A DNA stretch of 60,354 bases, the filler included, from Asterionella formosa (taxonomy: Eukaryota): assembly GCA_002256025.1 (NCBI GenBank). It is 6 parts of 6 records of this genome, joined end to end, with 100 filler letters (N's around TTAATTAATTAA, not from the genome) between each part and the next. Parts side by side here need not be neighbours in the genome. Positions count along the whole stretch, not along the records: positions 20,186 to 30,158 come from NKIB01010003.1; 5 more parts are not named here. The stretch is one strand, 5' to 3'. Made by a program: the position numbers and the translations under genes. The notes beneath the pieces are model-generated. The model was not told the origin of the DNA. It saw only the letters and a program-made list of their open reading frames with translations, and made no database searches. Shown here piece after piece: positions 10,850 to 54,998 of this stretch. The stretch's first letter is position 1. Every line of letters starts with the position of its first letter.

Positions 10850-10955
10850 TCTGGCGAGAAACTTCAGAAAGTAACTTCGGTTTTTAAACTATGCTATAAA
10901 GACTAGAAATTTCGGGGGGAAAAACCGAAGTTCCTTTCTGCAGTTTCTCGCCAGA
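10850..10955. repeat. ~36-bp inverted repeat (hairpin/mini-MITE) with ~34-bp spacer
   Basis: TCTGGCGAGAAACTTCAGAAAGTAACTTCGGTTTTT versus AAAAACCGAAGTTCCTTTCTGCAGTTTCTCGCCAGA, two mismatches. Confidence 0.85.
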
Positions 10956-11092
10956 AGTTAAATACTGATGCTATTTGAAGGTTACCTAAATTCGACAAAA
11001 TCGGCCTTTTCTACGGTCTCCGAAAAATTGGAATCAGAACCACTTAGCGCCGAAACTTCATCATTGGACAGGTAGTCTTTGTAAATTTACCA

Positions 11093-12196: not shown

Positions 12197-12719
12197 CAAA
12201 AGTTCCATTGTAAGTGTGCACAGTATTATATATGTACTGATAGGCCAAGGCGAAATACTCAACTCCGTTTGATTGTGAGAGAAATTGCAAACCCACACCG
12301 GCCACATTGGATACACATGTAACATTTCTTTGGATGTACCGGTAGGCCTGTACAAAGAAAACGAAGTAACCTCAAAAAGAGATGGTCAAGATCGTTCAGT
12401 ATGTCATGCGAATAAATGAATTAGCAGTATCGTGCTATCATGCATACGACAGGATGAAACGTACGTAAAAAAACCGTTCCAATCTGTGAGTGAATTGCAG
12501 GAATGATTTATGGTATGTCTCAAAAATTCAGTAATAGCCAAAAGTTTTTGTCATTTCCATATTTTACGCATGGAGTAGTTAAAAGCATACATGTGCATGA
12601 CAATCATTATCATGCCTCATGCATCATGCTCATCATCATACATCATAGATACCGTTTGTTGTATATACCGGTATGAGGGTGGACAAAATGTCCGGCATCT
12701 TCCATCTATCATGCATAGA

Positions 12720-14720
12720 TTTCTACGACAAGTGGTAGATTTCAATTGGTGATGACGGAGCCAAGGCCATTGCAGAGGCTCTCAAGGTCAATACTGTCTT
12801 GACTCAACTTAATCTTGTATGGAATTCAATTGGTGTTGATGGCGCAGAGGCTCTCAAGGTCAATACTGTTTAGACTATACTCCATCTCTACCGTAATTCA
12901 ATTGGTGATGATGGCGCCAAAGCCATTGCAGAGGCTCTCAAGGTCAATACTGTCTTGACTACACTTCATCTCTATAGTAATTCAGTTGGTGATGATTTAC
13001 TAAATGATATAAACAAACTGTCAAGGAAGATAAGATGAAGAAAGTTAGCAAAAGTTTTAAAATCGAAATGCAGGTGAGTTCATGTGTGGTATCAGATATT
13101 GCATCATATCTTGACAAGACTTTAAGTTTCTCATTCTTCTCTTCTCTTGTTTCAGGCATTAAAGAGGTTCTGACACCCCCATATTGTATCTTTGTATGGC
13201 TATCATATATCCTCTGATTCGCCTTCTCAATACCCGTTGTATGAGTATGCATCCAGGGGTTCGCTTGATAAATTTTATGCAAGTGAAGAAAGCAGAGAAA
13301 GCCTCTCAAGTGAGATCCAACTTCGAATCATGTTCCACATTATTTGTGCCATCCACTTCCTTCATACAGAGAAAAGTGATACTGAAATAAGTGACAACTT
13401 TATTCTGTTTCATTGTGACATCAAGTCGGCTAATATCTGCCTTAGACGAGACTATACTGCCAAACTGATTGATTGTGGCCTGGCCAAGTTTGTGCCTGTG
13501 GATGACTCAATTGCAATTCCTTTTTCAGTTCAGAACACAACAATTGGTGGAGTCTTTGGGACACCTGGCTACATATGTCCAAGGTATTCTCATGAGAAAA
13601 AGACATTTAAGGCATGCTATTATGTTTACTCGTTTGGCATTGTCATGATTGAGCTTGTGACAGGCTGCATTCAAAATGGGCAGAAAGGAGATTTCTTTAA
13701 ACGCTACTTCCCAGAAAATTTTGATGGAAATCCAGCAGAGGCATTGAAATTGGCAATTCAAGAATTGGCGAAAGATGTTGATCCTCTTGCAGATGAATGG
13801 GAAGATGGAAGTCTGTCTTCTGTGTGCTCATTAGCCTTTCATTGCATTCAGTACCGTTTTGGAAATAGGCCAACAACTAGTGAATTGGTTGAGAAACTGG
13901 GTGAACTTGTTTGTCAAACATATCATAATGTTGGTGGAGGTCCCATAGAATCCTGTGGTGGAAAAATGGGAACATTGAGCTTGAATGAAAGTAATAAACA
14001 ATGTCATGTGTGTAGCAAAGTTTCTACTTTTGTTTTCATGTGCAAAGATCATTCCACATGCCAACAATGCTTTGAGGATCATGTCATTATGCATCTTGGT
14101 GATGAGACCATTCAGTGCCCAGTCAAAGGTTGTGACCAGTCTTTTTCAAATAAGGAAATGTTCAAGAGCCAGATCTTGTCCAGAAATCTGTATGTTCTTC
14201 ATGTGAGGAAACAAGATGAAAATGAGTAATGGTCCAAACTCTTGCAAAACCAAAAAGAATTTTTGGAGAAGATATCTCATCTACAGTCACAAGTTACAAA
14301 GGGCCTTGCTAATCTTACTGCTGGAGTAGAGGCAAAGTGTCCCAAAATTGTCTATATTGTTCCACTCTATGAAGAAGGGGCCCCAAGCCAAAACATTGGA
14401 TAAAAACTGAAGTTCAGATATTCTTTGTTTTCAGCATTTAGGTGTTGATGTAAAAGAAGCCTGTTTTACTATGCAAGTTACCAGGAAATTGTTGACCGGT
14501 GTTGCACCTGCTATCAGATATGCTTTGTTTCTTCTAAAAGTTGCAGCACCTGCTGGTTAAATTTTAGCTGGAATGAATTGTCCAATTGAATCAATTGAGA
14601 AATTAGCCAATGTTATGATATGAGATCCCCTTACAAAAGAGCTTGATAAAATCCTTTCAAGCAAGTCTATTCTTGAGTTGGATTGGAAGAGGCTAACTCC
14701 AATTGTTGGACCATCCCGTG
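12720..14720 (+). pseudogene. Disrupted LRR (RNI/NLRC3-like) - protein kinase (IRAK/TKL-like) - RING gene
   Basis: 28-aa LRRs SIGDDGAKAIAEALKVNTVLT.L.L..N at ~12740-13000, one with a TAG. Intron 13074-13155, then ALKRF*HPHIVSLYGY. Kinase motifs YEYAS.GSL, HCDIKSAN, IDCGLAK, GTPGY, YSFGIV. Cys pattern CHVC..C..H..C..C..CP...C. Further stops after 14229. Confidence 0.75.
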
Positions 14721-15299
14721 ATAAAATTTCTGAAAAGGACCATAAGGAAAAGAACCGGGTTCCTGTTTTGGACAAAGTTGGTAACATCATATGGTTGAAG
14801 AACGAGTTTGAAGTTGAATATAAGTTTTTTTTGTTTCCTTTCTGCATTTTGAATGTCATTTCTTATGGGAGAAGAAATTCCAAGGTTACTTCATGATCCA
14901 GTTTTCTCCCATCACAATATTTATTCATTTTGGGAACATAAAAGTAATAATTTTGAATTTACAATAGATTTTTTGACTTGAGAAGGGGGAAAACGATTTT
15001 GGAAATCAAATTCAAATTACATTTCATGATTTTTATACATTCAGATCACAATATATACCATTAGTCACCACTTTGACCTTGGATTTCATCTTTTTGAATT
15101 GAGAAGTGGGAAAACAGGTTTGCTCTGTGACTATGGTATAGAGACTAAAAATTACTTAGAAGTACCCGAATGGCAAGACGATAGCTGGAGCGGGAATTGC
15201 CCCGACACTGGTGTACGCACCACCGTGCCAGGCACGTGCACTGACAAAAGGTACCCTGGTACTAGATACAGCCATATCATTTGTTCATCCAGTTTGTAG

Positions 15300-18155
15300 A
15301 GGCACACCAAGGAACTCCTCATTACTACAAATGCTGGTGCCGAAATTGAAATACCAGAATCTGAAAAACCTGTTGGGTGTCTATCAGTATAATATTGCTG
15401 GGTTTGATACTCAAGGAACAGCCTGCTATACTATAGCTGCATACCTGCTGGTATCAGGTACTCCGACCATTTTGGTAACAAAGGTGTTCTTTGCCTCTGT
15501 CAACCACTACAAGGCAACAGCAAGCAGAATCAACCTAGCATCACAGCAAATCCTCCTACTCATTGCATACACAAAGACTTTTTGATAAAAGGTACAACTA
15601 CCTAACTACATCAGTACAATTTTACTACCTCTCAACACTAGCTACTGGAATAACAACTGGTGAACCGAAAGGAGATTCTTTACTGAATATTGCAATTGCA
15701 ATTTTACTACCTCTCAACACAGTCACACCCTCAAGATTACAATCCTCTGCTTATTGCTCTTGACAATATAGATTCCTGGTCAAGAATATTACTTAAATCT
15801 ATTTTTCTCCATTCAACGACATCATCCCTCACTGCTGCCTCATTTGGATAAAACCTATCTCCTGTGTATCTTCCTGGGCAAACCCATTGTGATCTTCCAC
15901 TACCACACTGACAGTTGATCTACCTACTTCAGCTACAATGTCATTCATTTAGGTTCCACCTGCCAATAGAAAATGTATTTCCTTAAAAATCTCCTCAGAT
16001 CATGAACAGAAACATTGCCGGTCTCCTTCTATTGGTCATGTTAGACATCAACATCATTCTATTGATCATGTTTCTGCATTTTCTGGATATCATCGCCATC
16101 ACCAACAACACTCTCAAGAGAAAAAGTTCTTGTCTCCTTCTATTGGCCATGTTGGATATCTATATGTTAGACATCATTCCCATCAAAAAACCAGTCAGGC
16201 ACATTTCATGTCACCTTCACAGCCTACCCATTCTCCTCTTGGTCATGTTAGACATCATTCCCATCAAAAAACCAGTCAGGCACATTTCATGTCACCTTCA
16301 CAGCCTAAGCATTCTCCTCTTGGTCATGTTAGACATCATTCCCAGCGAAAAACCAGTCAGGAACATTTCATGTCACCTTCACAGCCTACCCATTTTCCTC
16401 TTGGTCATGTTAGACATCATTCCCATCGAAAAACCAGTCAGGAACATTTCATGTCTCCTTCACAACCTACCCATTCTCCTCTTGGTCATTTTAGACATCA
16501 TTCCCATAGAAAAACCATTCAGGAACCTTCCCATTCTCCTATTGGTCATGCTGCTGAATTTGCTGGATATTCCAATACTTTCATCCCTCATTCACCAAGT
16601 CCCCATTCTTGTAATTCCATTGCTCATTCGCCCTTCAGCACAGTATCTCCCAGTTTGGGGTTTCATCCACAATTCCTATGATTTTTCTTGTCAAATCAAT
16701 AATATTCTGGTTGATGGTTGTTGTCTAATCATTCATGATGATGATTTCTTGATTGAATGCCAATTCAATCTAACTCAGCCATGATGCTAACAATCTTTGC
16801 CATGTTCTACTTACAATGTTACATCTTGCACCATAACATGCACCATGTTGTCCCCAGTTTCCATTCACTATACCAATCAGTCAATTATGTTTGATATCCA
16901 GCTTTTATGGGACATCTTTGGTTCATAATCCAAATTGTTTGTATACATTCTCCACTGAAAGATTGCTGGCATTTCACAATGCAATATTTGCAAGATCTCC
17001 TGGTTTTGGAAATGTTTAAGCATCCTGACATGGGCGAATTTATGATTTACAGAGTTATCTTCATATTACTGTATGAATATCATTGGAAAGTTCATACCAT
17101 GTCCATTTTGCCTCACATACAAGATTGCTCAGCTCTTTGGATTGGAAACCCTGCTCCTTTGATTGATATTGATGTTCATCTCCATTGTGAGGCATTTTAC
17201 AAGATTGAACTAGATGCATCTATTCTTACTTTTTCTGGACACATACTCTGGTTTCTAATTATTACACTGCTCATGAACAAGTGCATGCTATTTCATCCTC
17301 CTGATGACCGCATGGGAATGGATACGGCATTCTTTGGTTTAGTACAACCAACAGTGAAATCCAATGAATTCTGCCTATACGTTTTGCAACTACTTGCACT
17401 TGGAATCCCATCTATTCAGGAAATCAATAAATTCTGTTCCATTCTGTCCAGCAATATTGGCGATGCACATCACTCCTTGTCACCTTTATTTTGATTCCAG
17501 CCAGGTTACCATATTATACTGTGCCTCAACACACACTGCTCACCATCTTCTCTATTGTTTTAGGAGACACACTGGAATATGGTCTTAGTAGCCTTATTGT
17601 CCTTCTGAATCAATTAGACAATCAAATTAGTGGCCTTAAAGTTCTTCTGAATCAATTGAACAATCAAATTCATGCCCTGACAAGTTTCGGGAATCAACAG
17701 AGCTGTGCATCCTATTTTCCTTCTGTTTGCAAAAGGACCAGCAATCGAGGCCTACACGCAAACACCCAAATTAGTCATATCTCTTTGTTCCAGATTGACT
17801 CCTCTGTTTTTCCTCTTGATGCCAAGTTTCTTTCATTACCTTGACTTTTGGTGCTTCTTATGCATCATTACAAGAATATGACGGACTCTAAATTCCATCA
17901 TTTGGCTGGTTTTGATCACCTACTCTTGCTTGCCTTGGCCTCACCAGTCCCAAAGACCATCAGACAATTCCTGTTACTTTGCTTCCGGGTTTCTCATTCA
18001 TTCATGAGATGGGGTTGATGTTATGAATCACTGTCCTGTCAGGATGTAGATTCATGTGTCTGTCTGTTTGTCTGTGAACGCCTGTCTCGTGTTCTCGCTC
18101 TACTTTCTATCTCTACATAGTCTACTATAAATATACTTTAATCACTCTTTTAACA
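15300..18155 (+). mobile_element. Highly degenerate LTR-retrotransposon-like region ending in a putative 3' LTR (18019-18155)
   Basis: Purine tract GAGATGGGGTTGA directly precedes TGTTA...TAACA (137 bp, contains TATAAA). Upstream sequence is CpG-poor with broken ORFs. Boundaries are approximate. Confidence 0.45.
16165..16525 (+). repeat. 81-bp tandem repeat, ~4.5 copies (27-aa His/Ser/Pro-rich unit)
   Basis: GGTCAT(G/T)TTAGACATCATTCCC recurs at 16241, 16322, 16403 and 16484. Confidence 0.92.
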
Positions 18156-18387
18156 TACCCCCTTCCAAACTCCTCTTGAGCTTGTCAGGTTAGTTAATTG
18201 ACTCACACCACTCTCCTCCTCCTCCTTCATCCTCGTCGTCCTTCGCTACCGTTCCCTCTTTCACTGCATAATATCGCACCTCCTGGTCCAACAATTTCTC
18301 AGAAACATCCTTTGCCATTAACACAATATAGTAGAATTCCTATTGAGGCAATTATTGAGATGATGCAAATGAATCAGCAGAATGCTG

Positions 18388-20085
18388 TCATTCCTCATTC
18401 TTTTTCTTGTCCTCATACTCAGCCAAGATCCAAAGAGCTGCACAACCATAGAGTAGAACATCAGCATTGGTTAAATGAGTCTTCATTGCAGACAGAATCA
18501 TAGTGATACTTCCTGCATAGTGTTGCACATCCACATTGGAAGAATGAGTCTTCATCAAGATTGTAGTGATACCTCCTGCTTCAGCAATTGTCGTATTGTT
18601 GTTATCATTATTGTAAGGCAAAACAAAAAGTGCTCTACAAACAGCTTCTTGCACTTCAGCTTTTGATAAATGAGTCTTCATTGCAATCAGAATCATCGCA
18701 ATACCTCCTGCATCAGCAATCATCACCCTGTTTTTGTCATTATTGTAAGACAAGACAAAAATTGTTCCACAACAAACTTCTTGCACAAAAAAATTGGATG
18801 AATGAGTCATCATTGCTGACAGAATCAAAGTTATACCTCCTTCTTCATCACAAACACAATTGCACTGATACCTCCTGCTGCAGCAATCATCAACTTGTTG
18901 TTTTCATTATTATCAGCCAAGTTCGAAAGTGCTGCACAACAAAGGTATTGAACTTTAGAATTGAATGAATGAGTTTTCATCGCTGACAGAATTGTAGTGA
19001 TACCTCCTGCTTCAGCAATTGTCACCTTGTTGTTGTCATTATTGTAAGACAAGACAATAAGTGCTCTACAACCAGCTTCTTGCGCAAAAAAATTGGATGA
19101 ATGAGTCTTCATCGCAGACAGAATTAAAGTTATACCTCCTTCTTCAGCAATCGTCACCCTGTTCTTGTCATTATTAACAGCCAAGTTGCTAAGTGCACCA
19201 CAAACATACTCTTGCACATCATCATTGGGGGAATGAGTCTTCATTGCAAACAGAATCGTAGTGACATCTTTTGCTTCAGCAATTGCCACCCTGTTCTTTT
19301 CATTCAAAGCCAAGTTCTGAAGTGCTGCACATCCATAGTGTTGCATATCGATATTATATGGATGACTTTCCATCTGAGACACAATCATAGCAGTACCTCC
19401 TTCATCATCAATCATCACCTGGTGGTTGTTGTCATTCTCAGCCAACTTCCAACAACAATGTGATGATTGTTAAAGAAGATCATATAGAGAAAGCTATCAA
19501 TGTTTAGAAAATATGATCCTACTTAGACTTTTCTTTCTTTTATATGATAATACAATTTGTAATTGATACAAAAAATATTAATCAATCCTCATAAATAAAA
19601 CCATATTGACTACTTCCCATGTTGGGTCAATATGAAAGGTGCTCCATAACCTTTTTCTTGCACACCAGCATTAAAAAAATGATTTTAAATAGCACACTCA
19701 ATTGCAACTTTTTCACCAGCATTGGAAATCATTGCCTGGTTGTTGTCATTTTTATAAGCCAAATTCTGAAGTGCTGCACAACCATAGTGTTGCACATCCA
19801 CATTGGAGGAATGATTATTCATCACAAACACAATTGCACTGATACCTCCTGCTGCAGCAATCATCACCTTGTTGTTTTCATTATTATCAGCCAAGTTCGA
19901 AAGTGCTGCACAACAAAGGTATTGAACATTAGAATTGAATGAATGAGTTTTCATCGCTGACAGAATTGTAGTGATACCTTCTGCTTCAGCAATTGTCACC
20001 TTGTTGTTGTCATTATTGGAAGACAAGACAATAAGTGCTCTACAACCAGATTCTTGCGCAAAAAAATTGGATGAATGAGTCTTCA
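18388..20085 (-). pseudogene. Armadillo-repeat protein gene fragments, internally duplicated and frameshifted
   Basis: ~43-aa ARM units (N.DNKVTIAEAGGITTILSAMKTH....VQ..GC.AL.NLA) in ORFs 19685-20026, 18831-19445 and 18388-18828. Segment ~19815-20085 nearly duplicates ~18842-19112. Frameshift at ~18830. Confidence 0.75.
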
Positions 20086-21388
20086 NNNNNNNNNNNNNNN
20101 NNNNNNNNNNNNNNNNNNNNNNNNNNNNNTTAATTAATTAANNNNNNNNNNNNNNNNNNNNNNNNNNNNNNNNNNNNNNNNNNNNTACTAGTGCCTACGA
20201 GGACAAAAAGAATTATAGCACGTTACTTTGTCTATGACAAGAAAATTATTGGGTGTTTGGTTCCACCTCGAGAAAAATGTACAGGGGGGTCCAGCAACCA
20301 TAGGGGGGGTCCAGGACAATGAAGTATACGGTAGATTACTTTTGTTCGTTGAGTAGAGTGCATCGTCCAACATACACTTGCATCAGGTTTCGATTGATAA
20401 ATTACTTAAAAAAATCTCAGTCGGGAAGGTGGAGTAAAATAACGGTGGCTTGCTGTTTTAATCGGTACCTGGTACAATGAATTTAGGGGTTCTGACTATT
20501 TGCTGCATGCTGCCTTCGGTCATACATGTACCGGTAGTCCAACCAAAATGGGGTCATAAGAAAAACGGGGTCATTTAAATCCTTCTTTCTTGTCGCAGCT
20601 CCTTCTAACAATTGCTAAGAGGCTAAAAGTTGTGACTCGTCAGCACGGATTTCATATATGCACCGGCATCATATTAAAATTGTTTTTCCAAATACCAGGA
20701 CCACTGCCAGGTAATCTTAGCCAATTAATTATTGTGAGCAGTTTTGGTCGTTGCTTTCGCTCCTTCTTGGGCCATTCCTTTAGTAGCTGCCTTCGGCCGA
20801 CTGTTCCTTGCCCCGCCCCTTCTTGTTCCCAGCATCAGCCTTTGTCAGTGGTGAACTTACCTGTATATATGCACCAGGTACCGTCATATGGTACCCTGGT
20901 ACCAGGTACCGGTATTCAGCCATGCTTGGACGCGGAAAATGACATGAGCATCGCGTTCGTACGACCACCGGTATTCACATGGGCATATGTACATGTATGT
21001 AAAACAACATAACGACGAACGAACAGAGGTCGTCCACCAGGGTCGTAATCATGTCCTCGTCCATGCCGGTGCCTGGTACCGTATACCGGTACATAGACTA
21101 ACAGGTACTCCCTGCCTATGACTCTACCAGTAGCCGATTTTTGACAATGTTCGAACGAAAGCTTGGGATTCTGTGTTTTTCCATCCACCTATAACCGCAA
21201 ACAAATGATTTGCACAAGCAAAAGATGTAGCTGGATGAATGACCCAAAATCTTGAGTGCTATTAAGAAGAGCAATCATGAACACCCACAGGCGATTGCGC
21301 TAGAAATGTTTCAATATCAAAGACCAGTAGTTCATGGTAAAAGTCTATATATAAATATATATCGCTGTACCATAAAGGTCACTGCTGT

Positions 21389-22984
21389 TTAAATACTCGA
21401 CTTTCTAACCACACTCTGTCTTGGGGGAATCAATGTACCAGCTACAATTGGAGGAATGGCATCATAGTCACGGCTTGCATCTCTGCGGTCGGTCCGTTTG
21501 GGCGTTGTCTTGATCCGCCCTGGACTTTGCAAAAGATTTTCTTTAGGTGCTTGTTCTCCTGTCACCCATGGGTGTCTGAGAGCTTGTTCTGCTGTGTATC
21601 TAGTGCGTGGGTTAACATCTAGTAGGTGACTCAATAGATCCTTGGCTGATGGACTGAGAGTCTTTGCCCAACGAGGGAAACGCAGTACAAATCTGGCTCT
21701 AACTAAGTCATCGGAAGGGACAGTTTGCGAATCATCATCAAAGGGAAGGCATCCACATAACAAGACAAAGACAATTACTCCCAACGCCCATGTATCGACA
21801 GCTCTTGAATAGTCGCGTCGTTGCAACATTTCAGGTGCTAAATAGCCTCGGGTCCCCAGAAACGATCGAGCCACTTGCTCTTCCATGCACTAGAATGTTG
21901 TGTATGTGTGTGAGAGAGGGAGAAAGCGAGAAAGAGGGAGTGTGTATTTGAACAAAGGCAATCATGACAAATGATTGCAAAACCCATTGTGTGAAGAGCA
22001 ACTCACCTTACTTAACCCAAAATCAATAATCTTGACTTCCAACTCTTGGTCACACCCCATTCTAGTCGATGGTTTATGTTTCAATAGTAAATTTTCCGGT
22101 TTCATATCCCGATGTATAATATTTTTGGAATGCATAAAGACCAACGCCGACGTGACTTTCCTAACAATCCTACTTGCTTCTTCTTCCGTCAAAGTTCCCT
22201 TTTGCACAACATAATCAAATAATTCTCCTCCCTCCATCAATTCCATAATAATATAAATTTGATGTGGTGATATGAATACATCATAGAGTCTAATGATATG
22301 TGGATGTTGCAAACTCCTCAATGCTTCAATTTCTGTATGAAATTGTGCCATGAGCCCATGGAATCGTTCTTCCAATTCTCGCTTGTCAATGATTTTACAA
22401 GCATAGGATTCTTGCTGTTCTCTATGGATGCATCGATGACAGGTCGACGTCGATCCAACGCCCAAAACTTCCTTGAGTTCGTACTTGGCCAAGAAACGTC
22501 GTTCTGCGTCCTGTGTATGAGTAGTTAGTAAGTAGTGAGTGTGTAAGACGAGAAACAGAGTGCAGAATTCATGAAATAATTCTTAGTTTGGCAGAGTGTA
22601 CCTAGAGAAAGAGAGTCCTGTTCCATAACGTACCTGGTCATCATACACTTCGGCATTCCCACCATTCCTGGGTGGCAATGGTGGTACAAGTAGTTCGTCT
22701 GTACTACTGTTTGTATTCCATTCATTCGAAGTATCCTTTTCCAATCCCCCATACTTGCTTAGAAATATGGGAGAGGATGCTTCCATAGCAGCCTTGCGTT
22801 GTCTCCTCCGATCCGAAGGCGTCGCTGGCATTGGTGTTCCAAGTAGCATGTGCTCATCGTCGTTCTTGTTGTTGCTGCTGTTGCTTTTGTTGTTGTGGTG
22901 GCTTGCCTGATGATGATGATGATGATTGGGTGGACAGAATAGACTGAAGCAGTTGTTGTTGGGTTTCGAAGAGGCTGATCCCAT
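21389..22984 (-). CDS. CaMK-group Ser/Thr protein kinase, three exons, possible N-myristoylation (MGSASS)
   Basis: LGVGSTS, YACKII, ELMEGGELFD, HRDMKPEN, DFG, GTRGYLAPE, DTWALGV. Introns 22633-22511 (CAG|GTACGT..CAG|GAC) and 22006-21890 (AAG|GTGAGT..TAG|TGC) keep the frame. Confidence 0.9.
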
Positions 22985-24137
22985 GATTTGATTTCTGATT
23001 CTTTGTTGGTTTGATTGGCCTTTGCTTGCTTTTCTTTCAATCTTTTGTTGTATTATTCAATAGATGATTGTCCCCAATCGCTGTTGCTAGCTTTGCTGAT
23101 GTTGTATGGATTGCACTTGGCTTTACAATACTCAAGTTCCATTCAGTCAACGAAATGTTTCACCCCCGACGCGGCACATGTGTGATATGCAACAAAAAGA
23201 GGACTACAGGAAGTGGGAGTGTTGTACTACCGGTATTGTGGTTAGTGCATTGTTCATATTCCGGTATTTTAGCAGGAAACCATGACGTCAACTGCAAATG
23301 CAAGAACGCCGAAACGTGAGGAGGCGGAGGCGGGAGGTCTCGTCAACCAGCCAGATTCATACATACCGGTATGTAGGCACCGGTATACATTTTAACAATG
23401 AAATTAGGGTGGTTGAGTAGTCTACCGTACTAAATGCCGGTTTAAAAAAATTGGTATTGTGCAGTTATTACGGTTATATCCATTCTACATTGCTTACCGG
23501 TATACTGGTTGCGTATCTGGTACATGGTCTGAGAAGCACAACTTTTATCTACCGGATAACTGGTTACCGGTACCATGATGTCTCCCTTTGCAACAATGCA
23601 AAGGAGTACCTGTACCGGTAGGTACATAATTTTCCATTCAGCGTGCAAAGTACTGCCCTTCATTTACCGCATGTAAATATCGGCATACCAGGTACCACAT
23701 CTAAAACAATTGACATGTATGAATATAGATACGGTATACCGGTATGTGATAAATTAAGCCATCATGATTGATAGAATGAATTTACCGGGGGTATATATAT
23801 ATTGAAAATGACTACCGATACCGGAAATGCTGCTCGTTGCACTCCTCGAAAGGTCATTCCTTCAAAATATGGCGGTGGCATAATTACAGTTCATACATAT
23901 ATTTGATTGCCTTCTTCCTTTTTTTCGCTCAGCGCCGTGGTAGTTATAATTCTTCCTGCTTGGTGCTAGATCAATATCCTTGCATGGGTGTACTGCCCTT
24001 CCATTTTCTCTAATCGTCGTTCCCTTGAGAACAGACCTTTATTTGTTCCAGTAGGCAACTGCAGCGAGTATTTCGTTGTTTCCTTGTTCAACCAGAAAAT
24101 ACGTTGTCATTCATTTATTTTCAAGGTTTGCCATACG

Positions 24138-25688
24138 ATGAGTTCAAGTAACACCATCAACAACAATGATACTTCTCACCAGCAATTGAAAGAAAGAACA
24201 AACAACAACAACGACAACAACGACTACCATGTCAATGAACACGACAATAATAATATTGACACCATGTACGACGACGATCGCTCCCTACTCAGCGCCGATG
24301 AGGACAATAATCAATCCGTCACTAGCACGTCAAGTAGCAAACTGATGACTCTCATGAATGAAGCATTTGATTTAGATGCAGAAATTGTGTTCCCCATTCG
24401 CCGTCGAGCTGACCGCAACCGCAACAACCTTAATAATAGCAACAACGACCTGGATTCAGTCGTTACACATGTCACAATCAAGTCCATGACATTGGAGGCC
24501 ATTCATGAAACGGCATCCTTTGTCATGGCACATTGGAAAATACTCTTATTTGGACAGCTCATTTCTCTCGCCATGGCTACTGGAGGTGCGGCACAAGCCA
24601 CCATGAACTTTGAATGTCAGGTATCCGCACCATTGTTTACATCTGGGGTCTTTTTCACTCTCCTATCACTTTACCTAATACCTGTTTATGCACGTGGAGT
24701 GGCACTAAAACGAGGACGACTCACAGAAACAACAACAACAACAACAAAAACATCAATAAAAATCACTGCGATAGGACAAGGAGATGCCTTCATTTGGTTT
24801 CTACGTATCTTTCCAATCAAAACACAACCATGGAGATATCTTGTCATTGCATTCCTAGATGTGCAAGCCTGTTATTGTACTATCCTTGCCTTCAAGTATA
24901 CTCCCATGACATCTGTAACATTGTTTGCATCCTTGGCTGTACCTTCTGCCATGGTATTATCCAAATTATTTCTTGGGCGGTCCTTTGGAGTTGTACATTT
25001 CCTGGGAGTGAGCATGTGCATGATTGGGGTGGTCTACAATGTCCTTGCCGACTATCATGTCGATGAAATGCTTGATGGAAATACCACCAACACCACCACT
25101 GCAGACCAAGATGAGTACCCCAATCGACTGTTTGGAGACTTTTTGGCAATCATGGGTGGCATTATTTATGGTATTGTTGATGTTGTAGCAGAAGGTGTTT
25201 TGAAAGCTGACAAGGGAGATACAACAGAATTTCTCGGTATGCTTGGGTTCTTTGCATCCATTATATCCATGACTCAAGGATGGCTTACTGAACGTAATGA
25301 CATTATTGAACTCTATACTGGAGGGTCTTGCTCAGGGTATGGAACAGCAGCCTTGGTACTGCTTTATGTGATTGCCAGTTCATTGGAATTCATTGGAATT
25401 GCTCACTTTCTTAGCAAATCGGAAGCAACATTACTCAATCTTTCCTGCCTGACAGACCCCGCCCTTTGGTCTGTACTATTTACAATCTTTGCTCAAAATG
25501 TCACTCCTCCTCCTCTCTTTTGGGCAGCCTTAGTGTTTGTGGTGGGTGGTCTCATTGTATATGAATTGGCACCAAGTCCCATAGCAGCAACAGAAATTAC
25601 AATTTCATCTCTTTTGAAAGATGATTTTGATCATGACAATCAAAGCGAGACCCATATAAGTTACACTCCCGAGGTGCAAATGGTATAA
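24138..25688 (+). CDS. Solute carrier SLC35F1/F2 family (DUF914, DMT superfamily) transporter
   Basis: ILLFGQLISL, WRYLVIAFLDVQA, AFKYT.MTSVTL, GDFLA..G..IYG..V.AE, EFLGMLG.F, SEATLLNLS.LT. About 10 hydrophobic segments. ATG at 24138. Confidence 0.85.
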   Translation: MSSSNTINNNDTSHQQLKERTNNNNDNNDYHVNEHDNNNIDTMYDDDRSLLSADEDNNQSVTSTSSSKLMTLMNEAFDLDAEIVFPIRRRADRNRNNLNNSNNDLDSVVTHVTIKSMTLEAIHETASFVMAHWKILLFGQLISLAMATGGAAQATMNFECQVSAPLFTSGVFFTLLSLYLIPVYARGVALKRGRLTETTTTTTKTSIKITAIGQGDAFIWFLRIFPIKTQPWRYLVIAFLDVQACYCTILAFKYTPMTSVTLFASLAVPSAMVLSKLFLGRSFGVVHFLGVSMCMIGVVYNVLADYHVDEMLDGNTTNTTTADQDEYPNRLFGDFLAIMGGIIYGIVDVVAEGVLKADKGDTTEFLGMLGFFASIISMTQGWLTERNDIIELYTGGSCSGYGTAALVLLYVIASSLEFIGIAHFLSKSEATLLNLSCLTDPALWSVLFTIFAQNVTPPPLFWAALVFVVGGLIVYELAPSPIAATEITISSLLKDDFDHDNQSETHISYTPEVQMV

Positions 25689-26259
25689 ACAACAGTGAGC
25701 AATGATTGATGATGGTGGTATGCAACATTTTTCGATGAAAGGGGCAGCATAGAAATTATATATTCATGGGGGGTGGGGGCATTGGTATTTTATGTTAGTT
25801 TTTGTAATGTTTCATTGGTAAAATATCTTACCATTTTCATAGTGCGATGTAGATTGTTTTCGAATTGTGAGTTTTCTCTCGTACCAAATTCTTTTTGATT
25901 CATTCGATTCAGTTTGTAGTAGGTAATTCAGCATACCGGGACTTTTCTTTCCTAAAATAATTTCTCCATCGACAGGTTGGCATAGAACGATTCGGCTCAC
26001 TGTTGTAAGCCAATTGAGTCAGTCACCTACGTTCTTGACGCACGTGGTACATATTTTGTGGAATAAATATATATAACTATGCATCATTTTTTATATTTTT
26101 ATATTTTTGCTCTTTGTTATGATTATTATGTATTGTTTTGTTTCGCCGTCTATGGTCCATACCAACTGGTAACTGGAGTATACAACATATCGCTCGTGAT
26201 GATCAGATGCTAATTCATTTTTCAATTTCAAGAGTCCAAATCAAACACATGAATAGAGA

Positions 26260-27246
26260 ATGATTCGTTCCTGTTGTTTCCTATTTCTGGTATCCGTTGC
26301 ATGTTGCTGTTGTTCCTCCTCAGTGGCTGTGGCCCGAGATGAGTTGCAAAAGCCGATGCGACCTGCTCTCGTTCAAGAGGCGCTTGACAAAAACAAGGAC
26401 ATTTACTACTTTGGACTTGGCAGCAACATGTCAAGACAGAAACTACAAGGCCGTGCCCTCGACGGGGCGCCCATCCATATCCAAACAATGGAGGCTGCGG
26501 TAGTTCCCAACTATAGATTGGCATTCAACCTCAAAGGCTTCCCTCCTTTGGAACCTGGGATGGGATCCTTGGAACCCTCCGATAGCAATTGCAAGGCATT
26601 GGCAAAGTATCATCAGAATGAATGTCATGGCGCATTGGTCAAGTTATCTGCACAAAATTATAACCGTCTAATGCAAAGTGAAGGGGTTGGTGTTGTCAAC
26701 AGTACCAGCAACAATCCGTCGTATGAAGAAATTGTCGTCATGGCATTTCCCTACCGAAACTATTGGTGGCGACATGGTCAACGACCAGTCCCAGCCATTG
26801 CCCTACGTGCACGAGATCATGTACGCTTATCTCATGATCCATGCCCATCCAAACGATATATGAAACTGTTGAGAGAGGGAGCCAAAGAATTGGGATTGGA
26901 TCCAGAGTATCAACTATTCCTGCAGAACCATCCAGTCCAACATATATCCACGTGGGTACGGAATATTGCCTTGTGCAATTTGGTATTTTTGTCTACATTG
27001 TCCTTTCGACTCAAGGTTAGAGTTGTATCCAAATTACAAAACTGGTTCTTGTTCCAAGTATATGTACCATCGAATCATAAAAATGGTATAGTCAAGTCTA
27101 TGAGTGGATTCTTGACTTTGCTTATCCTGGCACCTGGAGCTGTTGTTGGCTCCATCCTTATTGTACTCATGAAAACAACTGGGACAATGCCGCCATTCTT
27201 GCTTCGTATGATGACCATGTTGGGTGAAAATCATGATGAGAATTAG
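26260..27246 (+). CDS. Gamma-glutamylcyclotransferase (GGCT/AIG2-like) protein with signal peptide and C-terminal hydrophobic helices
   Basis: YYFGLGSNM, YRLAFN, CHGAL..L, L..SEG, PSKRYM.LL.EGAKE.GL.PEYQ.FL. Confidence 0.8.
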   Translation: MIRSCCFLFLVSVACCCCSSSVAVARDELQKPMRPALVQEALDKNKDIYYFGLGSNMSRQKLQGRALDGAPIHIQTMEAAVVPNYRLAFNLKGFPPLEPGMGSLEPSDSNCKALAKYHQNECHGALVKLSAQNYNRLMQSEGVGVVNSTSNNPSYEEIVVMAFPYRNYWWRHGQRPVPAIALRARDHVRLSHDPCPSKRYMKLLREGAKELGLDPEYQLFLQNHPVQHISTWVRNIALCNLVFLSTLSFRLKVRVVSKLQNWFLFQVYVPSNHKNGIVKSMSGFLTLLILAPGAVVGSILIVLMKTTGTMPPFLLRMMTMLGENHDEN

Positions 27247-27750
27247 TCAACACGTGCTAAAAACGCTGTAAAACATTTGGATATAGGAATACTTGATGGC
27301 CTCTCTCTCTCTCTCCCCCCCCCCCAAGAGACCTTCTTGCATCCGACACATACTAGGATGCTCCACCTTTTTATACAAAGCTATGTCAGATTTAGCAACA
27401 ACAATATTTTAGATTTATACATGTTATCCTTTTTATTAGGATGTATTCTCTATTCTCATAACAAAATGGATTGTTACTTGGTAAATCGTTTTGATGTTGG
27501 TTTCACACTAAAAGAAGCTTCAGATTTTATCATCATAATAATATAACAGATGAACAATAACTTCAAAACAAGGCAGACGATTGAAGGGGACCTATAATGT
27601 TCGACAGAACATACACCAATATGGCTGATACCAATAGTACTAGTTTCCTTTTGTACCTTCCATTCACTCAGAATCACTTGAGACTTCAGATTTGCGTTAC
27701 AGCACACGTGACGCGAAGCAGTGTTGAAGGGATCGGAATCTTCCAGAGTT

Positions 27751-29760
27751 TCATGTCCTTTCATTGCTAATACTATCAACGGATAGAGACTCGGAGCACC
27801 TTTCCTGATGAAGCTCACGAATAGTCTTCATAGCGTTCATGTATTTGGAACTGCATTCCATCAATCGATCATTGCCCATGATTTTTTCAACCCTAGCCTT
27901 TTCCATTGCCGATTGCCAGTGGTGTGCCTCGATGGCGTCACCAACGGCCAATGCTTCTTGCATCATCTCTGTTGCATTCCCTTCTTTTGTCATTGCTCTT
28001 GAGATATCAGTCAAAATTGGGTTGGATTCGTTGAGCTGGGCGGTAAAGCAATCTACTCGTTGCTGAGCAAAGGATTGAGCGACAAAATCACCTTTAGCCT
28101 TGGCGTGCGAAACCTCCATCATCGCCTTGCTGACTTCAATAGAAAGAAACAAAGTTAAAAAATTTCGAATACCAAAACCTCCACAACCTGGTTTGATCTT
28201 GGCTGGGCATCCATCCTTATCTTTGCATTGTGAACACACTCGTTGAATAAATTCTAAAAACGGGGCTTCCTCCACAACATGGCGTTGAAGAATGTTGCAA
28301 GTAAATATTTGATACAACAGGTCGTCGCCTTGCACATCAACAAGAATTTCGTTTCGTACAATACCAAGGTAGGTCTTTTCAGAAACATGATGCTTGAGCA
28401 AATTGTGCAAATTAATGTACCGTGATTTGAGAATTGTTACAAGGACATACTCCGCCCTTTGATGGTATTCCTCAAGTGCACATCCCTTCAAATGCTTGAA
28501 TAATCGTTGGTCCATCTCATCCCGTGTCAAGTCTAAATTCACTGCTCCATCACTTGTGATGATTCCTTGCTCGTGACAAGCTTCTAGTATGGCTTCTGCT
28601 GTTGCCTTTGTGACTCCCGCCCCAGTTTCCAGCTGATGCATGGTCAAAACGCCATAATACGATCGTGGTATTTGTAAAAATGATACCCCTTCTCCTGTAA
28701 TGTTCCGGTAGTCATTGGCTCTCTGACAGAAGGCCACCAGATCTTCAACTCTCGATGCGACATGTTGAATCCCTTGACCAAGTTCCTTTAAAAATCCATG
28801 CACATGCCCCACCTCTGAGAGAGCATTGTTGATGGGTAAGTACACTTGCGATTGATCTTGAAGTGCCATGATCTTGTCGTTGGTTTTCAAACCTGACACG
28901 TTCCCAGTAACTGTGGATTCAATTTGTGCTTCTCCCGCGGCAACAACACCTGCATTAAAATCCACTTTTGGTAAAAATCCAAGCGTATCCTGAAGTATTT
29001 GAAGGACACTTTGTCTCGAAACCACGTTGGACACCCAATGATCACAAAATGCTGGCTGAGAATCCACTGGAAAATACGCTTCCACCGGAGTCAATCCCGG
29101 CAAGACAGCAGGCAATGGCTCATGAGTTGCTTGGATAAATCGAAGGACGGTTCCAGTGTCAGCGGTGACACCATCGGCCTTGTAGTAGGCGAATACCTCT
29201 AGGATTTCCTCCGTTCTCGAAAATCTTCGGAACAGTAACTTGGGATGAAGTCGTATGTACTTGTCTTCAATTTCTTTTATATTATCCACATTAAATGCCA
29301 AGACCGCCACTCCTTGTCGTTGTGCATGCTGGTTATAAAATCTCTGCAAGTTCGTTTCATCGAAAAAGGGATAGTGGTCCTCCACAGCAGTGTGGTACTT
29401 TGGGTTTGTTCTACTCGTAATGACAAACTGCACTCCTTGTTGCATCTTTCTGGAGGATATCACGACTGTTCTAGTATTGCACAGGACATTGTGATTGGGG
29501 AATCTGACAGCAGTCACGCGAAACCCAAATGCCACCAGGAGCTGCTTGACAATGTCTCTGTGTTGAGAACAAAAGTGTGTGGTCATGCGGTGACGTTTGC
29601 TTTTCATTAGTTCCTTCATTGTCGTTTGCTGTTTCAGTGCTGCCAATTGATTCAAGTGCTCTTCTAGATGCTTGTAGTAGAGAACGTCGTCTACGCGATC
29701 AACGTACAAATGAACGTGAGAAAAGGAAATTCCATTTCTTTCTGTTTCTGTTGTCGTCAT
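27751..29760 (-). CDS. HPPD: 4-hydroxyphenylpyruvate dioxygenase-like protein (enlarged, ~669 aa)
   Basis: FSHVHLYV, DH.VSNV, LPIN, GIQHVA, P.SYY, ILVD, LYQIFT, FLEFIQR, GGFG.RNF.TLF.SIE. The His/His/Glu Fe triad is present. Confidence 0.85.
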   Translation of the reverse strand: MTTTETERNGISFSHVHLYVDRVDDVLYYKHLEEHLNQLAALKQQTTMKELMKSKRHRMTTHFCSQHRDIVKQLLVAFGFRVTAVRFPNHNVLCNTRTVVISSRKMQQGVQFVITSRTNPKYHTAVEDHYPFFDETNLQRFYNQHAQRQGVAVLAFNVDNIKEIEDKYIRLHPKLLFRRFSRTEEILEVFAYYKADGVTADTGTVLRFIQATHEPLPAVLPGLTPVEAYFPVDSQPAFCDHWVSNVVSRQSVLQILQDTLGFLPKVDFNAGVVAAGEAQIESTVTGNVSGLKTNDKIMALQDQSQVYLPINNALSEVGHVHGFLKELGQGIQHVASRVEDLVAFCQRANDYRNITGEGVSFLQIPRSYYGVLTMHQLETGAGVTKATAEAILEACHEQGIITSDGAVNLDLTRDEMDQRLFKHLKGCALEEYHQRAEYVLVTILKSRYINLHNLLKHHVSEKTYLGIVRNEILVDVQGDDLLYQIFTCNILQRHVVEEAPFLEFIQRVCSQCKDKDGCPAKIKPGCGGFGIRNFLTLFLSIEVSKAMMEVSHAKAKGDFVAQSFAQQRVDCFTAQLNESNPILTDISRAMTKEGNATEMMQEALAVGDAIEAHHWQSAMEKARVEKIMGNDRLMECSSKYMNAMKTIRELHQERCSESLSVDSISNERT

Positions 29761-31119
29761 GATAATACTGTGCAAAACTCGACTAAACCTTACTATCCTT
29801 CAACTTCTATATTTTATATTAGGATCAATTGACTGACAAAAGGATCTCAGTGACGGTGATGCTAATTCTGATTCTGATTCTGAAATGAAGCGAAGCGAAG
29901 CCAAGAATTTTTTAACAACATCAGGGACGAAGTTTAGAACATTTCTGTGAAGGATGACGAGTACCGATAAGGAAACGAAGCATGCACATACAACCATTCA
30001 TGAATAGAAGGAAATGATTGTTCAGATGTCAGTTGAACACGACTCGATCCAAGCAGTCTATGGGAACGAATGGACCGAATCTGGGAATCAACCGGCATTG
30101 CTCGCTCGCACATTGTTCGTTTGTTTGTTGGATTCACAAAAAGCAATAAAGAATAGAANNNNNNNNNNNNNNNNNNNNNNNNNNNNNNNNNNNNNNNNNN
30201 NNTTAATTAATTAANNNNNNNNNNNNNNNNNNNNNNNNNNNNNNNNNNNNNNNNNNNNTATTCAGATAATATATAGATATATTCAAGTAAGCATTTTGAT
30301 GTATTCAACTAATTCATGTGATCCATTCAAAATCAACTAGGCTTATTTACGTGATGGTCACTTCACGTAATACGCGGCTTAGATGTGCTGTGCTGTTAGT
30401 CGACATCGTGAGTTTCTTGTTTAAGCTGTTTTGCTTTGTGTATGAGGGAATCAAATGCTAAGAACATTTTGTGCCCAGTTTGGATTTTGGAATTGATTTG
30501 GTCGTGGAAACATTATGCTAGTAGCCTATAAATGTTTCTACGTAGCTACTGACAAATTACCACTGCCAAGTCCATACTGAGAGAATTGTATATCTCTGGT
30601 ACCTGGTACTGCTATGTTACAATAAACCGTGCATACCACAAATTATGTAGACTAACTGCAAATACTCAGAAAAAAACTTCTGGTATCATTATTGTATCTC
30701 CGTTTCGAATTGTCCAAAGCTTTGCCAAACCTTTGGATGATTTGAAACGGAGATACCTCTAGCTTCATCGTATTATTCCATGAGAGGTGCGTTGAAATAT
30801 ATGGACAGATATTGCCAAAGCTTTGGCAAATCTTTTTGAGACCAACTTCATCATGGCCTAGTTCACAAACAAACCACGGTTTTCGTAAAGTAGTCCACAA
30901 ATATCCTTTACCGAATACTTTAACTGCAATATTACGCCTTTATAAATTGTCGTTCACGCATTTTTCAGGTTGTGGCATTCATTCAAAATAGGAAATTCTT
31001 ATGATTCACCCAAAGCTTTGGATATTTGGTACCATGTCGAAAGTCTACAAGGACGCCTTGTTTCCGTTGGTAGCAAATTTTTATAGCTGCTGAAGGATTG
31101 GGTGTGCGTGTGGAATTGA

Positions 31120-31575
31120 TATGGTTTTGTATAACGACTTCATCTGGAGGACAGTCCTTGTTGCATGAATGATATATCGATGATACCTTACTCTATAATA
31201 TACGCCAGTGAATTGAGACTTGCAACATGATGCGTTGATTGATCATTGATGGAGTAATAGGGAAATGAGTATTGGGAAACAATCATTACCAAATGGTGTG
31301 GTTTTGTAATGATGAAAAGATATAGTGACTTCATCTGGAGGATGGTCCTTGTTGCATGAATGTTATATCGATAGTACCTTACTCTATACTATGCGCCAGT
31401 GAATTGAGATGCTCAACATGATGCGCAGGTTGATTATTGATGGAGTTATAGGGGAATAAGTTATGAGAAACAAAATTATCACCAAATGGTGTGGTTTTTT
31501 AAATGAAATGATGTAGTGACCTCATCAGGAGGATGGTCCTTGTTGCATGAATGATGTATTGATATTACCTTATTA
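31120..31575. repeat. ~191-bp tandem repeat, ~2.4 copies
   Basis: GAC(T/C)TCATC(T/A)GGAGGA..GTCCTTGTTGCATGAATG at 31136, 31327 and 31518. Confidence 0.85.
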
Positions 31576-31599
31576 AGATACAAATTTTACGCCTCTAAA

Positions 31600-32250
31600 T
31601 TGGATGATGCGTGGACAGCCTTACACATTACTCAGAATAATCATCAGCACTGAGACAGAAATTTTTATCAGAAATAATCAATGAGGCAATGATAAAACAA
31701 ATAAATCTAGAGAAGCTGCTCTAAAGAGCATCAAAGAAGCTGAATACATGGCCAGGTTATGGCCACGCCTACGTAAATACTCTAAAGGGGAGGTACGGTC
31801 TGGTTTGAGCAAAATAAAAATACCGGTTTATGATATGACAGGTGAAATCATAGACTACCATATGGTACTATCTGAGTCAACGGAAATGTTCAAGCACCTT
31901 ATCCAATGCAATAGTCATCATTTTGCACAAGCAGCACATACACCGTTTGTTAATAGTATTTTTGGGAAATATTTGCATCCATTTGAGCAGAATCGGTTCT
32001 CTGAGTCCATATTGGAGGGCACCATAGACCTGACAAAGTATGAGTTTAATTCAGCCATTAAGAGATGTATAATGGAAATGAGGCATCTGCTAGGCAAAAA
32101 TGGTGAGGATCCTATAAAATCTTCCATAACCATTGATGAGTTTAAACAAGGATTCAAATCAGTTGCGGAAAAGACTTCCTCATCCCCAAGTGGGAGACAT
32201 CTGGGACACTACACAAAGCTAGTCTCAAGGATGACATTCTTTGCCTAGTT
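31600..32250 (+). mobile_element. Non-LTR (LINE-like) retrotransposon fragment upstream of the RT core
   Basis: HFAQA.HTPF and ITIDEFKQGFK..EKTSSSPSGRHLGHY(TK) are the pre-RT motifs of stramenopile LINE ORFs. Truncated at ~32250 by another repeat. Confidence 0.7.
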
Positions 32251-32253
32251 TAG

Positions 32254-34397
32254 CGTCTGTAAATAAAAAATGTCATGAATAAATTATCAAGGGTATTGTA
32301 CGCTAGCAAGTGGCACAGGATTTTTACATCTATGATAGTTTTTCGATCAAAAATATGATCAATGTATCATATGATTATGATCATGCAGTAAACTTTTACC
32401 GAGCTTGAAGTATGATGAGACTATCATAGTTATAATACCATTGCATCATATAATTAGTTAAACATGGTCATATGATGTGTATACTTTCGTCATACATCTA
32501 TCTTAGCATGATCGTAATTCTCATCGATATCACTGTCTAAAATAGGATGAAATTGATCGAAATTTAGAACTATATTTAGCTAAGAATGGTTCTATGATTC
32601 TATCATATCTTAAGTGGCTACAGAATGTTCTACAATGCTCTCATCGCAATGATTGTTGGTGCCGCTTTCACTTCCACCTCCCCCTCTCCCAATCCAATTC
32701 TGAAGGTTGTTGTACTGGTTGCCTTGCCGTTGTTCCCCTGCTTTGTTCCATTTACTCCTGAGTGTTGTTCTAAGTTTGCATTCACGCATTTTCCTATTAC
32801 TATTGAATCCGTTTCGTTGTTCCAATCAGCCATACTAACAAAGAGAAGCAATTCATTGTTAGCTGTTCATGTTTTGCTTACAAAACAACATGCATTTTGC
32901 TTCTATCTTGCTTCACTTACCACAAATTGAGGAAGTAACTGATGCATATTTCTGTAGAAGAATGTGTCAGTCGAAGATTGAATGAGAAGCAAAGTATCGA
33001 TTAATAAATGGGCTCCAACACTGCTCTTTGTAACTTACAAATACTGTTTGTCTACCATTATCCTGAAAGAAGCAACACATATGTGTCAGTTTTTCTAACA
33101 GTTGTGGATTGATCCAAAGATGGCTGATAGGCAGCACTTACCGATTTATTTTGTCTACATTGATGGTTGACCAGCCACCAAATCGAAAAGGAGCTATTGA
33201 ATCACTGAAAGGGGACGAGTCAGTCCGTATTTGTAATCCCAGCAATTGATCATCTTGGCATTTGCTCTTGACAAACCGAAGGAACATGAAAGTCATCTGC
33301 TCTTGACTTACCATCAATTGATTCCACCCTTCTCTTCTAAGCCGCAAGTATCATTGTGCTGTATTATCACTTTCGTTTTCCGCGTCATCATCTGTGTTAA
33401 TCCTTCAATTCAGGAGCAAAGTGTATGCGTGACAAGGAACATGAAAGCATGATTTCAAATGTTTCAGCCATGAATACATAAATATATATATATAAAGATT
33501 TGTAAGAAGTTTAAATGTATATATAGTTGAACATTTGCATAGTTTTAAACACGCTCATTATACGGCACATCCTGTGTATACTAATATCAATTTTGATTAT
33601 ACATAGTTCAAATATATACAATGCATGATGAGTTCATAGTTTTCCACAACCTGTTGAGTTTTTTCAATTTGTGTTGTGTCAATTCTTGTACCTACAAGTC
33701 AGTGGCTGATTTAATTAAGCCCCTTAATAAACAGGAGTCATCACCAATTTTTCAAATGGTCGAAATCATACATTTATGTATATAGACATATTGACCAAAA
33801 TTCATATGGCCTACCGGTAGTGCTGTATAATTGCTGGTAATTACTTCTATCATGGAAATACCACAATAGTGCAGCAGAAAACTGAAGATGCTCATGTGTA
33901 TAGGTTTATTTGATCATATATTTAAGATCAATTAATCCTGATTCATGAAAATAAATGTTGATCATTCATTTTCTCATCAACGACACCGTTCATCATATGA
34001 TCAATATGTTATGATCAAAGGTATAGGATAAACAAATCTAAATTCATTGATTAAAGATCATAGTTTATACCGGAGTAGTTGCTCATGCAAGGCAACCCCT
34101 TCCTCCCCTGTATACCCCCTTCCTCCCCTGTATACAGTACGGAAGTGATAACCCCCAAGCTACCAAATTTTTATGTCTTGTAAGAATTATCGCAGCATGC
34201 ATGCATACATGACTCCTACTGGTGTATACAATGCGGAAATGATGACCACCAGACTACCAATCCTATAGGTCCTGTAGAATTATCGCAACATGGCTGCATA
34301 TATAATGAAAGGGCGGGAGGAGTCATCCATGCACCTGTATAGTATGAAATATGGAAATGATCAAATATAGCTAGTCTACACAAGGAGCAGTGCATCA
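32254..34397. mobile_element. ~2.1-kb dispersed repeat (non-autonomous TE), inverted copy at 50396-52692
   Basis: Colinear reverse-complement similarity over the whole length (e.g. ORFs 34216-34398 vs 50397-50582, 32630-32851 vs 52097-52324). A shared terminus CGTCTG(T/C)AAATAAAA-like is also found at ~10840 and ~10240. Confidence 0.85.
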
Positions 34398-34699
34398 TAT
34401 ATGCCCTGCTGTTGTTATTTTAATTCCTATGAAATCTCGCTCTTGATCTGTTCTGCGCTTTTTCGCCACAATTGTTTTCATTGGCTGTTTCACTGGACAG
34501 AATTAGAATTGATTGTGCTTTGAACGAAGCAATGATCAAAGTCCACCCCATTGGAGAATGGTGAGTCTCACAACTAAGTATCAGCCAGTCGATTAAAATT
34601 GGACTGTCTTTTGTGCAAACTTGTTGTGTTTGTACTTGACTTGGCAGCTGTCAGCCAAGAGCAGCCATGGCATGCCACCATTTATTGTCTATACAAGTT

Positions 34700-41690: not shown

Positions 41691-41699
41691 CCTACCGGT

Positions 41700-54960: not shown

Positions 54961-54998
<38 letters not shown>

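Follow-up and report, generated by a model that had tools for sequence, protein, structure and literature searches.

According to the relevant passages of PMC6943129, the excision of ITm elements involves a cut of the non-transferred strand that lies a few bases in from the element end, end-joining leaves 2-4 terminal bases behind, and the footprint of Sleeping Beauty is TACAGTA/TACTGTA; for Tc1, the footprint TACATGTA is cited in the pertinent part of PMC3520976. The Passer elements of fish, as described in sections of PMC9976928 and its supplement, are DD35D transposons that start with TA-CCGTA, leave footprints of 0-4 bp and prefer promoters or transcription start sites (TSS); Passer is also listed for nine stramenopile species (PMC9976928, PMC7386202), and the pogo classification used here is that outlined in parts of PMC7325037 and PMC7386202. 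Among the oomycete promoter motifs covered in the motif sections of PMC3597505, PMC3520976 and PMC10031896, M94/motif-9/streme-5 is TACCGGTA and M93/motif-1 is TACATGTA; Seidl et al. dismissed a footprint origin of TACATGTA on the grounds of its abundance and conservation, and these sections describe no indel test.

We propose, at a probability of roughly 0.88 and on the basis of sequence comparison, that the TACCGGTA copies of the diatom genome analysed here are accumulated excision footprints of pogo-superfamily, Passer-like DD35D transposons and of their MITEs, with terminal inverted repeats (TIRs) beginning CCGT.

The divergent promoter cluster and the abundance of its word

The window, that is, the whole 60,354-nucleotide stretch of DNA that was analysed, comprises six separate contigs of ~10 kb each, with N spacers between them, from the 68.4-Mb assembly of the diatom Asterionella formosa; the named relatives of one of its genes are diatoms, at ~50-60% identity. 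A sequence-only reading had listed 22 copies of TACCGGTA. All 22 coordinates are exact, as against a mean of 0.29 and a maximum of 2 copies in dinucleotide shuffles (n=100), and the six copies at 23228-23744 are confirmed. The region that holds these six is indeed divergent and intergenic, but the 520 bp assigned to it is too short: it spans ~1,153 bp, with the six copies in the central 517 bp. That intact genes are spared also held, with 0 of the 22 copies in Pfam-supported ORFs and the copy at 20907 in an unscanned 150-codon stop-to-stop frame. The copies at 33812 and 50968 were inherited within copies of one repeat. The features of the region are as follows.

21392..22984, minus strand: protein kinase gene (Pfam PF00069), left neighbour, in several frames/exons, with a probable ATG at 22984
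22985..24137, no strand: divergent intergenic region with the cluster, single-copy apart from one near-identical second assembly copy
23228..23235, no strand: TACCGGTA, putative excision scar TA-CCGG-TA, the origin being argued from repeats elsewhere in the genome
23364..23371, no strand: TACCGGTA, putative scar, exact word match
23423..23429, plus strand: TACCGTA, minor scar word TA-CCG-TA, enriched in the sample
23495..23502, no strand: TACCGGTA, putative scar, exact word match
23565..23572, no strand: TACCGGTA, putative scar, exact word match
23607..23620, no strand: chain of two units, TA-CCTG-TA-CCGG-TA, with one TA in common
23686..23694, plus strand: TACCAGGTA, putative scar of family C (CCAG/CCAC-ended)
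23730..23744, no strand: TACGGTA followed directly by TACCGGTA
24138..25685, plus strand: SLC35F/EamA transporter gene (Pfam PF06027), right neighbour, ATG at 24138
227, 3489, 3580, 3763, 7254, 12337, 12666, 20529, 20907, 21084, 33812, 36303, 36600, 36879, 41932 and 50968 (range 227..50975): the other 16 copies of TACCGGTA

The divergent promoter also contains a palindrome, TGACGTCA, at ~23284, which we take to be CRE-like. Elsewhere in the window lie a receiver-domain plus LuxR/GerE protein (299-1261), here a response regulator of bacterial type carried by a diatom; a broken copia-type retroelement remnant (43500-47300) with an RVT_2 match below cut-off; and a tandem pair (54600-56400 and 56950-58740) with a unit of ~2.35 kb and long Q-rich/N-rich simple-repeat frames.

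The second assembly copy of the region (L167) is identical at all six sites, with no indel. Comparison of 20186-30158 with sequencing runs X6-X9, in which repeat fragments dominate, gave no motif indel among 12 of 75 indel rows, and one X7 contig is 7 bases shorter somewhere within 23524-24189. The SLC35F protein had no relative in a metagenome scan.

Genome-wide, there are 28,528 copies of TACCGGTA and 1,718 of the reversed word, an excess of ~17-fold; for TACC(A/T)GGTA the corresponding counts are 26,886 and 902. In a sample of 361.5 kb, composed of the window and 40 stretches chosen by position (20 of the 40 on contigs first met via a repeat search), we counted 148 copies of TACCGGTA against 3.0 expected under a Markov model of order 2 and 8.8 under order 3. 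An order-6 model expects 138.6 copies and absorbs the signal, an outcome that had been named in advance as one that would remove it; we judge this comparison invalid because TACCGGTA dominates its own sub-words, which makes it circular. Among the 16 dinucleotides in XY-CCGG-XY, only TA is enriched. Several related words are in excess in the same sample, namely TACC(A/T)GGTA (131 vs 3.2 expected), TACCAGTA (89 vs 13.4), TACCAGGGTA (19 vs 0.6), TACCCGGTA (12 vs 1.1), TACAGGTA (36 vs 13.2) and TACCGTA (52 vs 25.5), and within the window the relatives named earlier are likewise enriched, with 12 occurrences of TACCAGGTA/TACCTGGTA, where four had been noted, and 11 of TACCAGTA/TACTGGTA. The Sleeping Beauty-type words TACTGTA/TACAGTA, said to co-cluster, show no enrichment within the window, with 9 occurrences vs 6-10 expected, and a weak one in the sample (69 vs 54.7).

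The distribution of TACCGGTA in the sample is strongly biased, with 1.38 copies per kb in the 500 bp upstream of ORFs, 0.40 downstream, 0.45 elsewhere and 0.054 inside ORFs of at least 200 codons; the upstream excess over downstream is 3.5-fold (p=5e-5). A palindromic word that is dense upstream and clustered in divergent promoters could be a binding site for a transcription factor or a chromatin protein, of the oomycete M94/motif-9 type, arising through point mutation and maintained by selection, and the same octamer is listed among the promoter motifs of Phytophthora and Plasmopara in the oomycete reports as excerpted. Moreover, the suggestion that the promoter copies keep their CpG receives some slight support, the ratio of intact to decayed copies being 46:16 upstream and 84:63 elsewhere (p=0.028), a comparison that is confounded because TACCAGTA can itself be a primary scar. 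Against such a site speaks the upstream profile, which is flat at ~1.0-1.4 copies per kb over -100 to -700, with no peak and no sharp position when counted from the ATG rather than the TSS. Together with the whole-word insertions and the flank profiles described below, this makes a selected binding site a very improbable origin of the word.

Gain of whole words at TA in repeats

The indels that bear on the origin of the word all lie in repeats rather than in promoters, within 858 kb of loci of the same genome aligned all versus all. These alignments contain 54 TACCGGTA sites, 8 of which were unusable; at 19 of the 46 usable sites a homolog carries a bare TA, 16 are otherwise different and 11 identical, so that the TA-to-motif indels which the sequence-only reading had proposed to look for do exist. 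The 16 otherwise different sites show, in a smaller run, mostly single changes of C-to-T type or extra small insertions. Among control words of the form TA-N4-TA, 15 of 643 sites are empty, the majority of them microsatellites (Fisher p=8e-16 vs TACCGGTA), and among GA/CA-N4 words 19 of 1,437. When an insertion is called from at least two empty homologs that outnumber the carriers (e.g., 1 vs 28, 1 vs 23), 10 of the 19 empty-site cases are insertions, none is a deletion and 9 are unpolarised. These alignments show a net change from TA to TACCGGTA in repeats.

In one 600-bp family each of the three six-base insertions reads TACCGG and is confined to a single one of the 30 copies; in one 2.8-kb family TACCGG accounts for none of 12 six-base insertions. 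A few TA-to-word indels were also found for TACC(A/T)GGTA, TACCAGGGTA, TACCAGTA and TACGGTA; for TACCWGGTA, 23 sites were unusable and 2 of the 12 usable ones are empty, although the alignment at one of these two is doubtful. Two of six 'empty' rows for TACCAGTA were discarded as alignment artefacts caused by a neighbouring insertion.

Two-base direct repeats can promote deletion, and the empty sites could in principle reflect the loss of an old motif by slippage between its flanking TAs, or else an assembly artefact. Yet control words of the same structure are empty at 1.3-2.3% of sites, the polarised sites are all gains, and independent freshwater-run contigs cross the sites at 23228 and 23364 gap-free, which renders slippage or artefact hardly credible. 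The insertion of all six bases at once at TA in unrelated repeats also argues against the stepwise origin by point mutation that a binding site would require.

Two repeats of the window were also noted. One, at 32254-34969 and near 50968, is at least 2.7 kb long, with ~500 candidate matches, a sharp left end and one ancestral TACCGGTA; the other, at ~11378-11980, is ~600 bp long, has 580 candidate matches, is often tandem and is nested in a family C element. In the repeat family of 32254-34969 (L001-L030) and a further family (L106-L135), 87 insertions of 3 bp and 50 of 4 bp far exceed the 25 of 1 bp; 32 insertions are perfect 3-bp duplications, and a dinucleotide XY plus G, C or GC precedes a repeated XY in 22, 9 and 18 cases. 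These XY-type insertions suggest a second class of scar, left by an element that duplicates 2 bp irrespective of their sequence; a generic TIR scan found no source for the XY-G/C/GC-XY insertions.

Element families with matching ends

The DDE_1 domain (PF03184) has 93 matches in the genome, and among 35 loci examined around them we found complete-element ends of three kinds, TA-CCGTATAC in family A, TA-CCGTAAAA in family B, and TA-CAGTG; the remaining loci of the 35 contained no such end pair. Complete elements of the form TA-CCGT...ACGG-TA measure 2.4-2.7 kb. Family A is young and high-copy, with 334 exact ends, a ~640-bp MITE and near-identical copies. Its ends are followed by TA in 36 of 38 cases, and those of family B in 17 of 17, which shows that both families insert at TA and duplicate it. 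Both transposases, encoded in family A by the long members, are of the DD35D type with a DDE_1 domain; the ORF of family B has 420 aa, and the family A copy examined is broken over two frames. A BrkDBD match (E=0.0067) lies below cut-off, and HTH_Tnp_Tc5 gave no match. PF13358 and PF01359 (DD34E/DD34D) have no match in the genome, and a PF01359 control likewise matched nowhere. The earlier attribution to Tc1/mariner excision is supported as to the kind of event, excision footprints, and needs correction as to the source, which appears to be pogo-type, DD35D and Passer-like rather than Tc1/mariner proper; TA-duplicating families with the ends CCG, CCAG/CCAC and CAG, as sought, are all present. 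Two other TIR elements were seen, one GGG-ended with a 3-bp duplication (L096:5924-7388), presumably Harbinger-like, and one flanked by TTAA (L086:1734-3996). The window itself holds the following element sequences.

20186..20333, plus strand: family A end, terminus GTATACGG, with TA at 20332-20333; it opens the contig that holds the cluster
11088..12195, plus strand: complete family C element TA-CCAG...CTGG-TA (element at 11094-12195)
20420..20474, plus strand: diverged end of family C, after which comes TACCTGGTA (20466-20474), identified by eye, with an approximate left edge

Family C, with CCAG or CCAC ends, comprises a MITE of ~740 bp and 223 exact ends, CCAC being the commoner. The copy at 11094-12195 has its left TA in common with a TACCAGTA word and carries the nested ~600-bp repeat. 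TA follows every one of the 31 intact ends and TACC 21 of them, and 11 directly abut a scar word; TACC still follows 13 of the 20 ends with no adjacent scar, and family C shows a target preference for G-TA-C. A GTAC duplication was rejected, TA duplication being favoured 54 to 2. A single ladder of 4-nt overhangs was also set aside: the CCAG subfamily is consistent with it, but the majority of ends are CCAC, which do not predict the enriched word TACCAGGGTA.

The long copies of family C encode a broken, Pfam-negative protein (L269, C1997:17287-20192; L270, C5148:37674-41362) with 244 relatives of at least 421 aa, mostly 500-1,000 aa, including hypothetical proteins of Fragilaria crotonensis. 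Residues D13, D162 and D200 are invariant, in DD37D spacing. The predicted model (pLDDT 82) aligns with Mos1 (Z 8.6, rmsd 2.9, 138 aligned) and Metnase (Z 8.3), and since retroviral integrases score almost equally (Z 8.1), the fold leaves the family unfixed. A search of the PDB with the family C profile gave no sequence match, and the match between the profiles of families C and B is not significant (probability 0.13). These features indicate an unannotated DD37D transposase family in diatoms.

The sequences that flank the words point to the same two sources. Flank profiles, taken over the five bases beyond TA from 52 and 31 ends as rounded frequencies, and partly circular for chains, correlate for TACCGGTA with the targets of families A and B (r=0.80) and hardly with those of family C (r=0.17), whereas for TACC(A/T)GGTA the match is to family C (r=0.98) and not to A and B (r=-0.15); 5 of 36 family C ends were excluded for a changed terminus. 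The binding-site model does not predict this double match of word to family. TACCGGTA is mostly solitary, with 15 of 147 copies in chains, and the flanks of TACC(A/T)GGTA run on into another scar in 94 of 262 cases; adjacent CCWGG units are in the same orientation in 19 cases and in opposite orientation in 15, unlike the outcome of slippage.

A repair or polymerase process independent of transposons might instead place fixed words at TA, with the match to element ends being secondary. Scars are far more numerous than elements, and the general indel spectrum is odd, with 3-4 bp insertions exceeding 1-bp insertions (87+50 vs 25, one family). However, each of the two words fits its own resident family, both in the element ends and in the target profile, and hairpin repair copies variable flank sequence and would not yield a fixed word. 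We regard such a process as improbable and retain transposon excision as the preferred origin.

Proposed mechanism and relation to known systems

Under the footprint model, an element would go in at TA and duplicate it, and a staggered excision cut would leave 2-3 terminal bases on each flank. End-joining could then yield TA-CC-GG-TA, either by 2+2 fill-in or by the pairing of two CCG overhangs via CG, two routes that give the same product here. Family C would write TACC(A/T)GGTA likewise, joining TA-CCA and GG-TA from CCA ends. Given that family C prefers G-TA-C and that scars begin with TACC and end with GGTA, old scars might become new targets, so that chains grow by feedback. The pile-up upstream of genes may be a consequence of insertion that favours promoters combined with selection that purges scars from ORFs; the scars would need no regulatory function.

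A rough balance of gain and decay predicts that TACCGGTA occupies 0.16-0.56% of TAs, against 0.68% observed, the pooled gain rate, which rests on 3 events, lying ~fourfold below the observed density. As this balance roughly fits, selection is not required for the density, though it may contribute. Nevertheless, with ~55,000 scars and some hundreds of counted element copies, the model has to suppose a very large flux in the past.

As an addition to the footprint origin rather than an alternative, promoter copies might have been co-opted and retained by selection. The six copies within 517 bp, the excess of the observed 0.68% of TAs over the pooled neutral estimate of 0.16%, and the lesser decay of the upstream copies are all in keeping with co-option. 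Yet unmethylated promoters would show lower CpG decay even in the absence of selection; scars are already dense in the sequence that borders present-day family A insertions, at 0.78 per kb over 27 flanks; and a promoter insertion bias is reported for Passer in the passages cited (PMC9976928). On balance, we consider co-option unlikely, though less so than any of the competing origins.

For comparison with other lineages, we examined the orthologous methyltransferase locus of other algae, where 36 of 70 loci are at least 3 kb long and together contain 19 copies of TACCGGTA in 281 kb. This paucity may be a further argument against a conserved binding site, although the algae are distant relatives. 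Three samples of one species contribute 10 of the 19 copies, and the footprint-word pattern is lineage-dependent. That alga (L238-L240) has the same word set in 11 kb: TACCGGTA, TACCAGGTA, TACCAGTA, TACCGTA and TACAGTA. Same-species pairs among these algae are 99-100% identical, with few gaps.

The words of the diatom have the form of canonical Tc1/mariner footprints, in which TA plus 2-4 terminal bases plus TA results from a staggered cut and end-joining, and they differ in sequence because the element ends differ. Excision footprints are textbook knowledge, yet are treated as rare, being known as single events or assay products, whereas in the diatom two words, in ~55,000 copies in 68 Mb, are the top non-coding words. 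Our literature search, mainly of open-access papers, found no report of footprints in diatoms or genome-wide.

With Passer, as described in the source passages, families A and B have in common a DD35D DDE_1 transposase of ~420 aa, TA duplication, a short CCGTA-type TIR and a length of 2.4-2.7 kb, values that fall within the 1.6-4 kb and 400-500 aa expected of Passer, for which BrkDBD and/or HTH_Tnp_Tc5 are the expected DNA-binding domains. The likeness is drawn from triad, ends and size rather than from a tree, with BrkDBD sub-threshold and HTH_Tnp_Tc5 absent from the matches. Family C resembles Mos1/SETMAR-type elements in its Mos1-like predicted fold and three invariant Asp residues, and differs from them in the lack of a Pfam match, the DD37D spacing, the longer relatives and the strong preference for G-TA-C.

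The two scar words dominate among upstream motifs, so that a motif search would present them as cis-elements. Indels of TA versus motif, combined with flank matching, offer a simple test for abundant palindromic promoter motifs, first of all the effector-linked motifs of oomycetes, and scars may preserve a history of transposition that outlasts the elements themselves. The oomycete M94/motif-9 is the identical octamer, abundant upstream in a stramenopile, and is read as a transcription factor site in the parts of those reports cited above; the other oomycete motif, TACATGTA, is not enriched in the diatom sample (8 vs 11.4 expected), unlike TACCGGTA. As a tentative generalization, to which we give somewhat less than even odds, transposon visits may be a leading mutational force in the promoters of this diatom and probably of other stramenopiles: each active family would write its own word, one would regenerate its target and build arrays, and the commonest promoter 'motifs' of a genome would be a readout of the active TIR ends, such that the oomycete TACATGTA and TACCGGTA would be Tc1- and Passer-type scars, marking open and frequently hit promoters instead of transcription factor sites, some of them possibly co-opted later.
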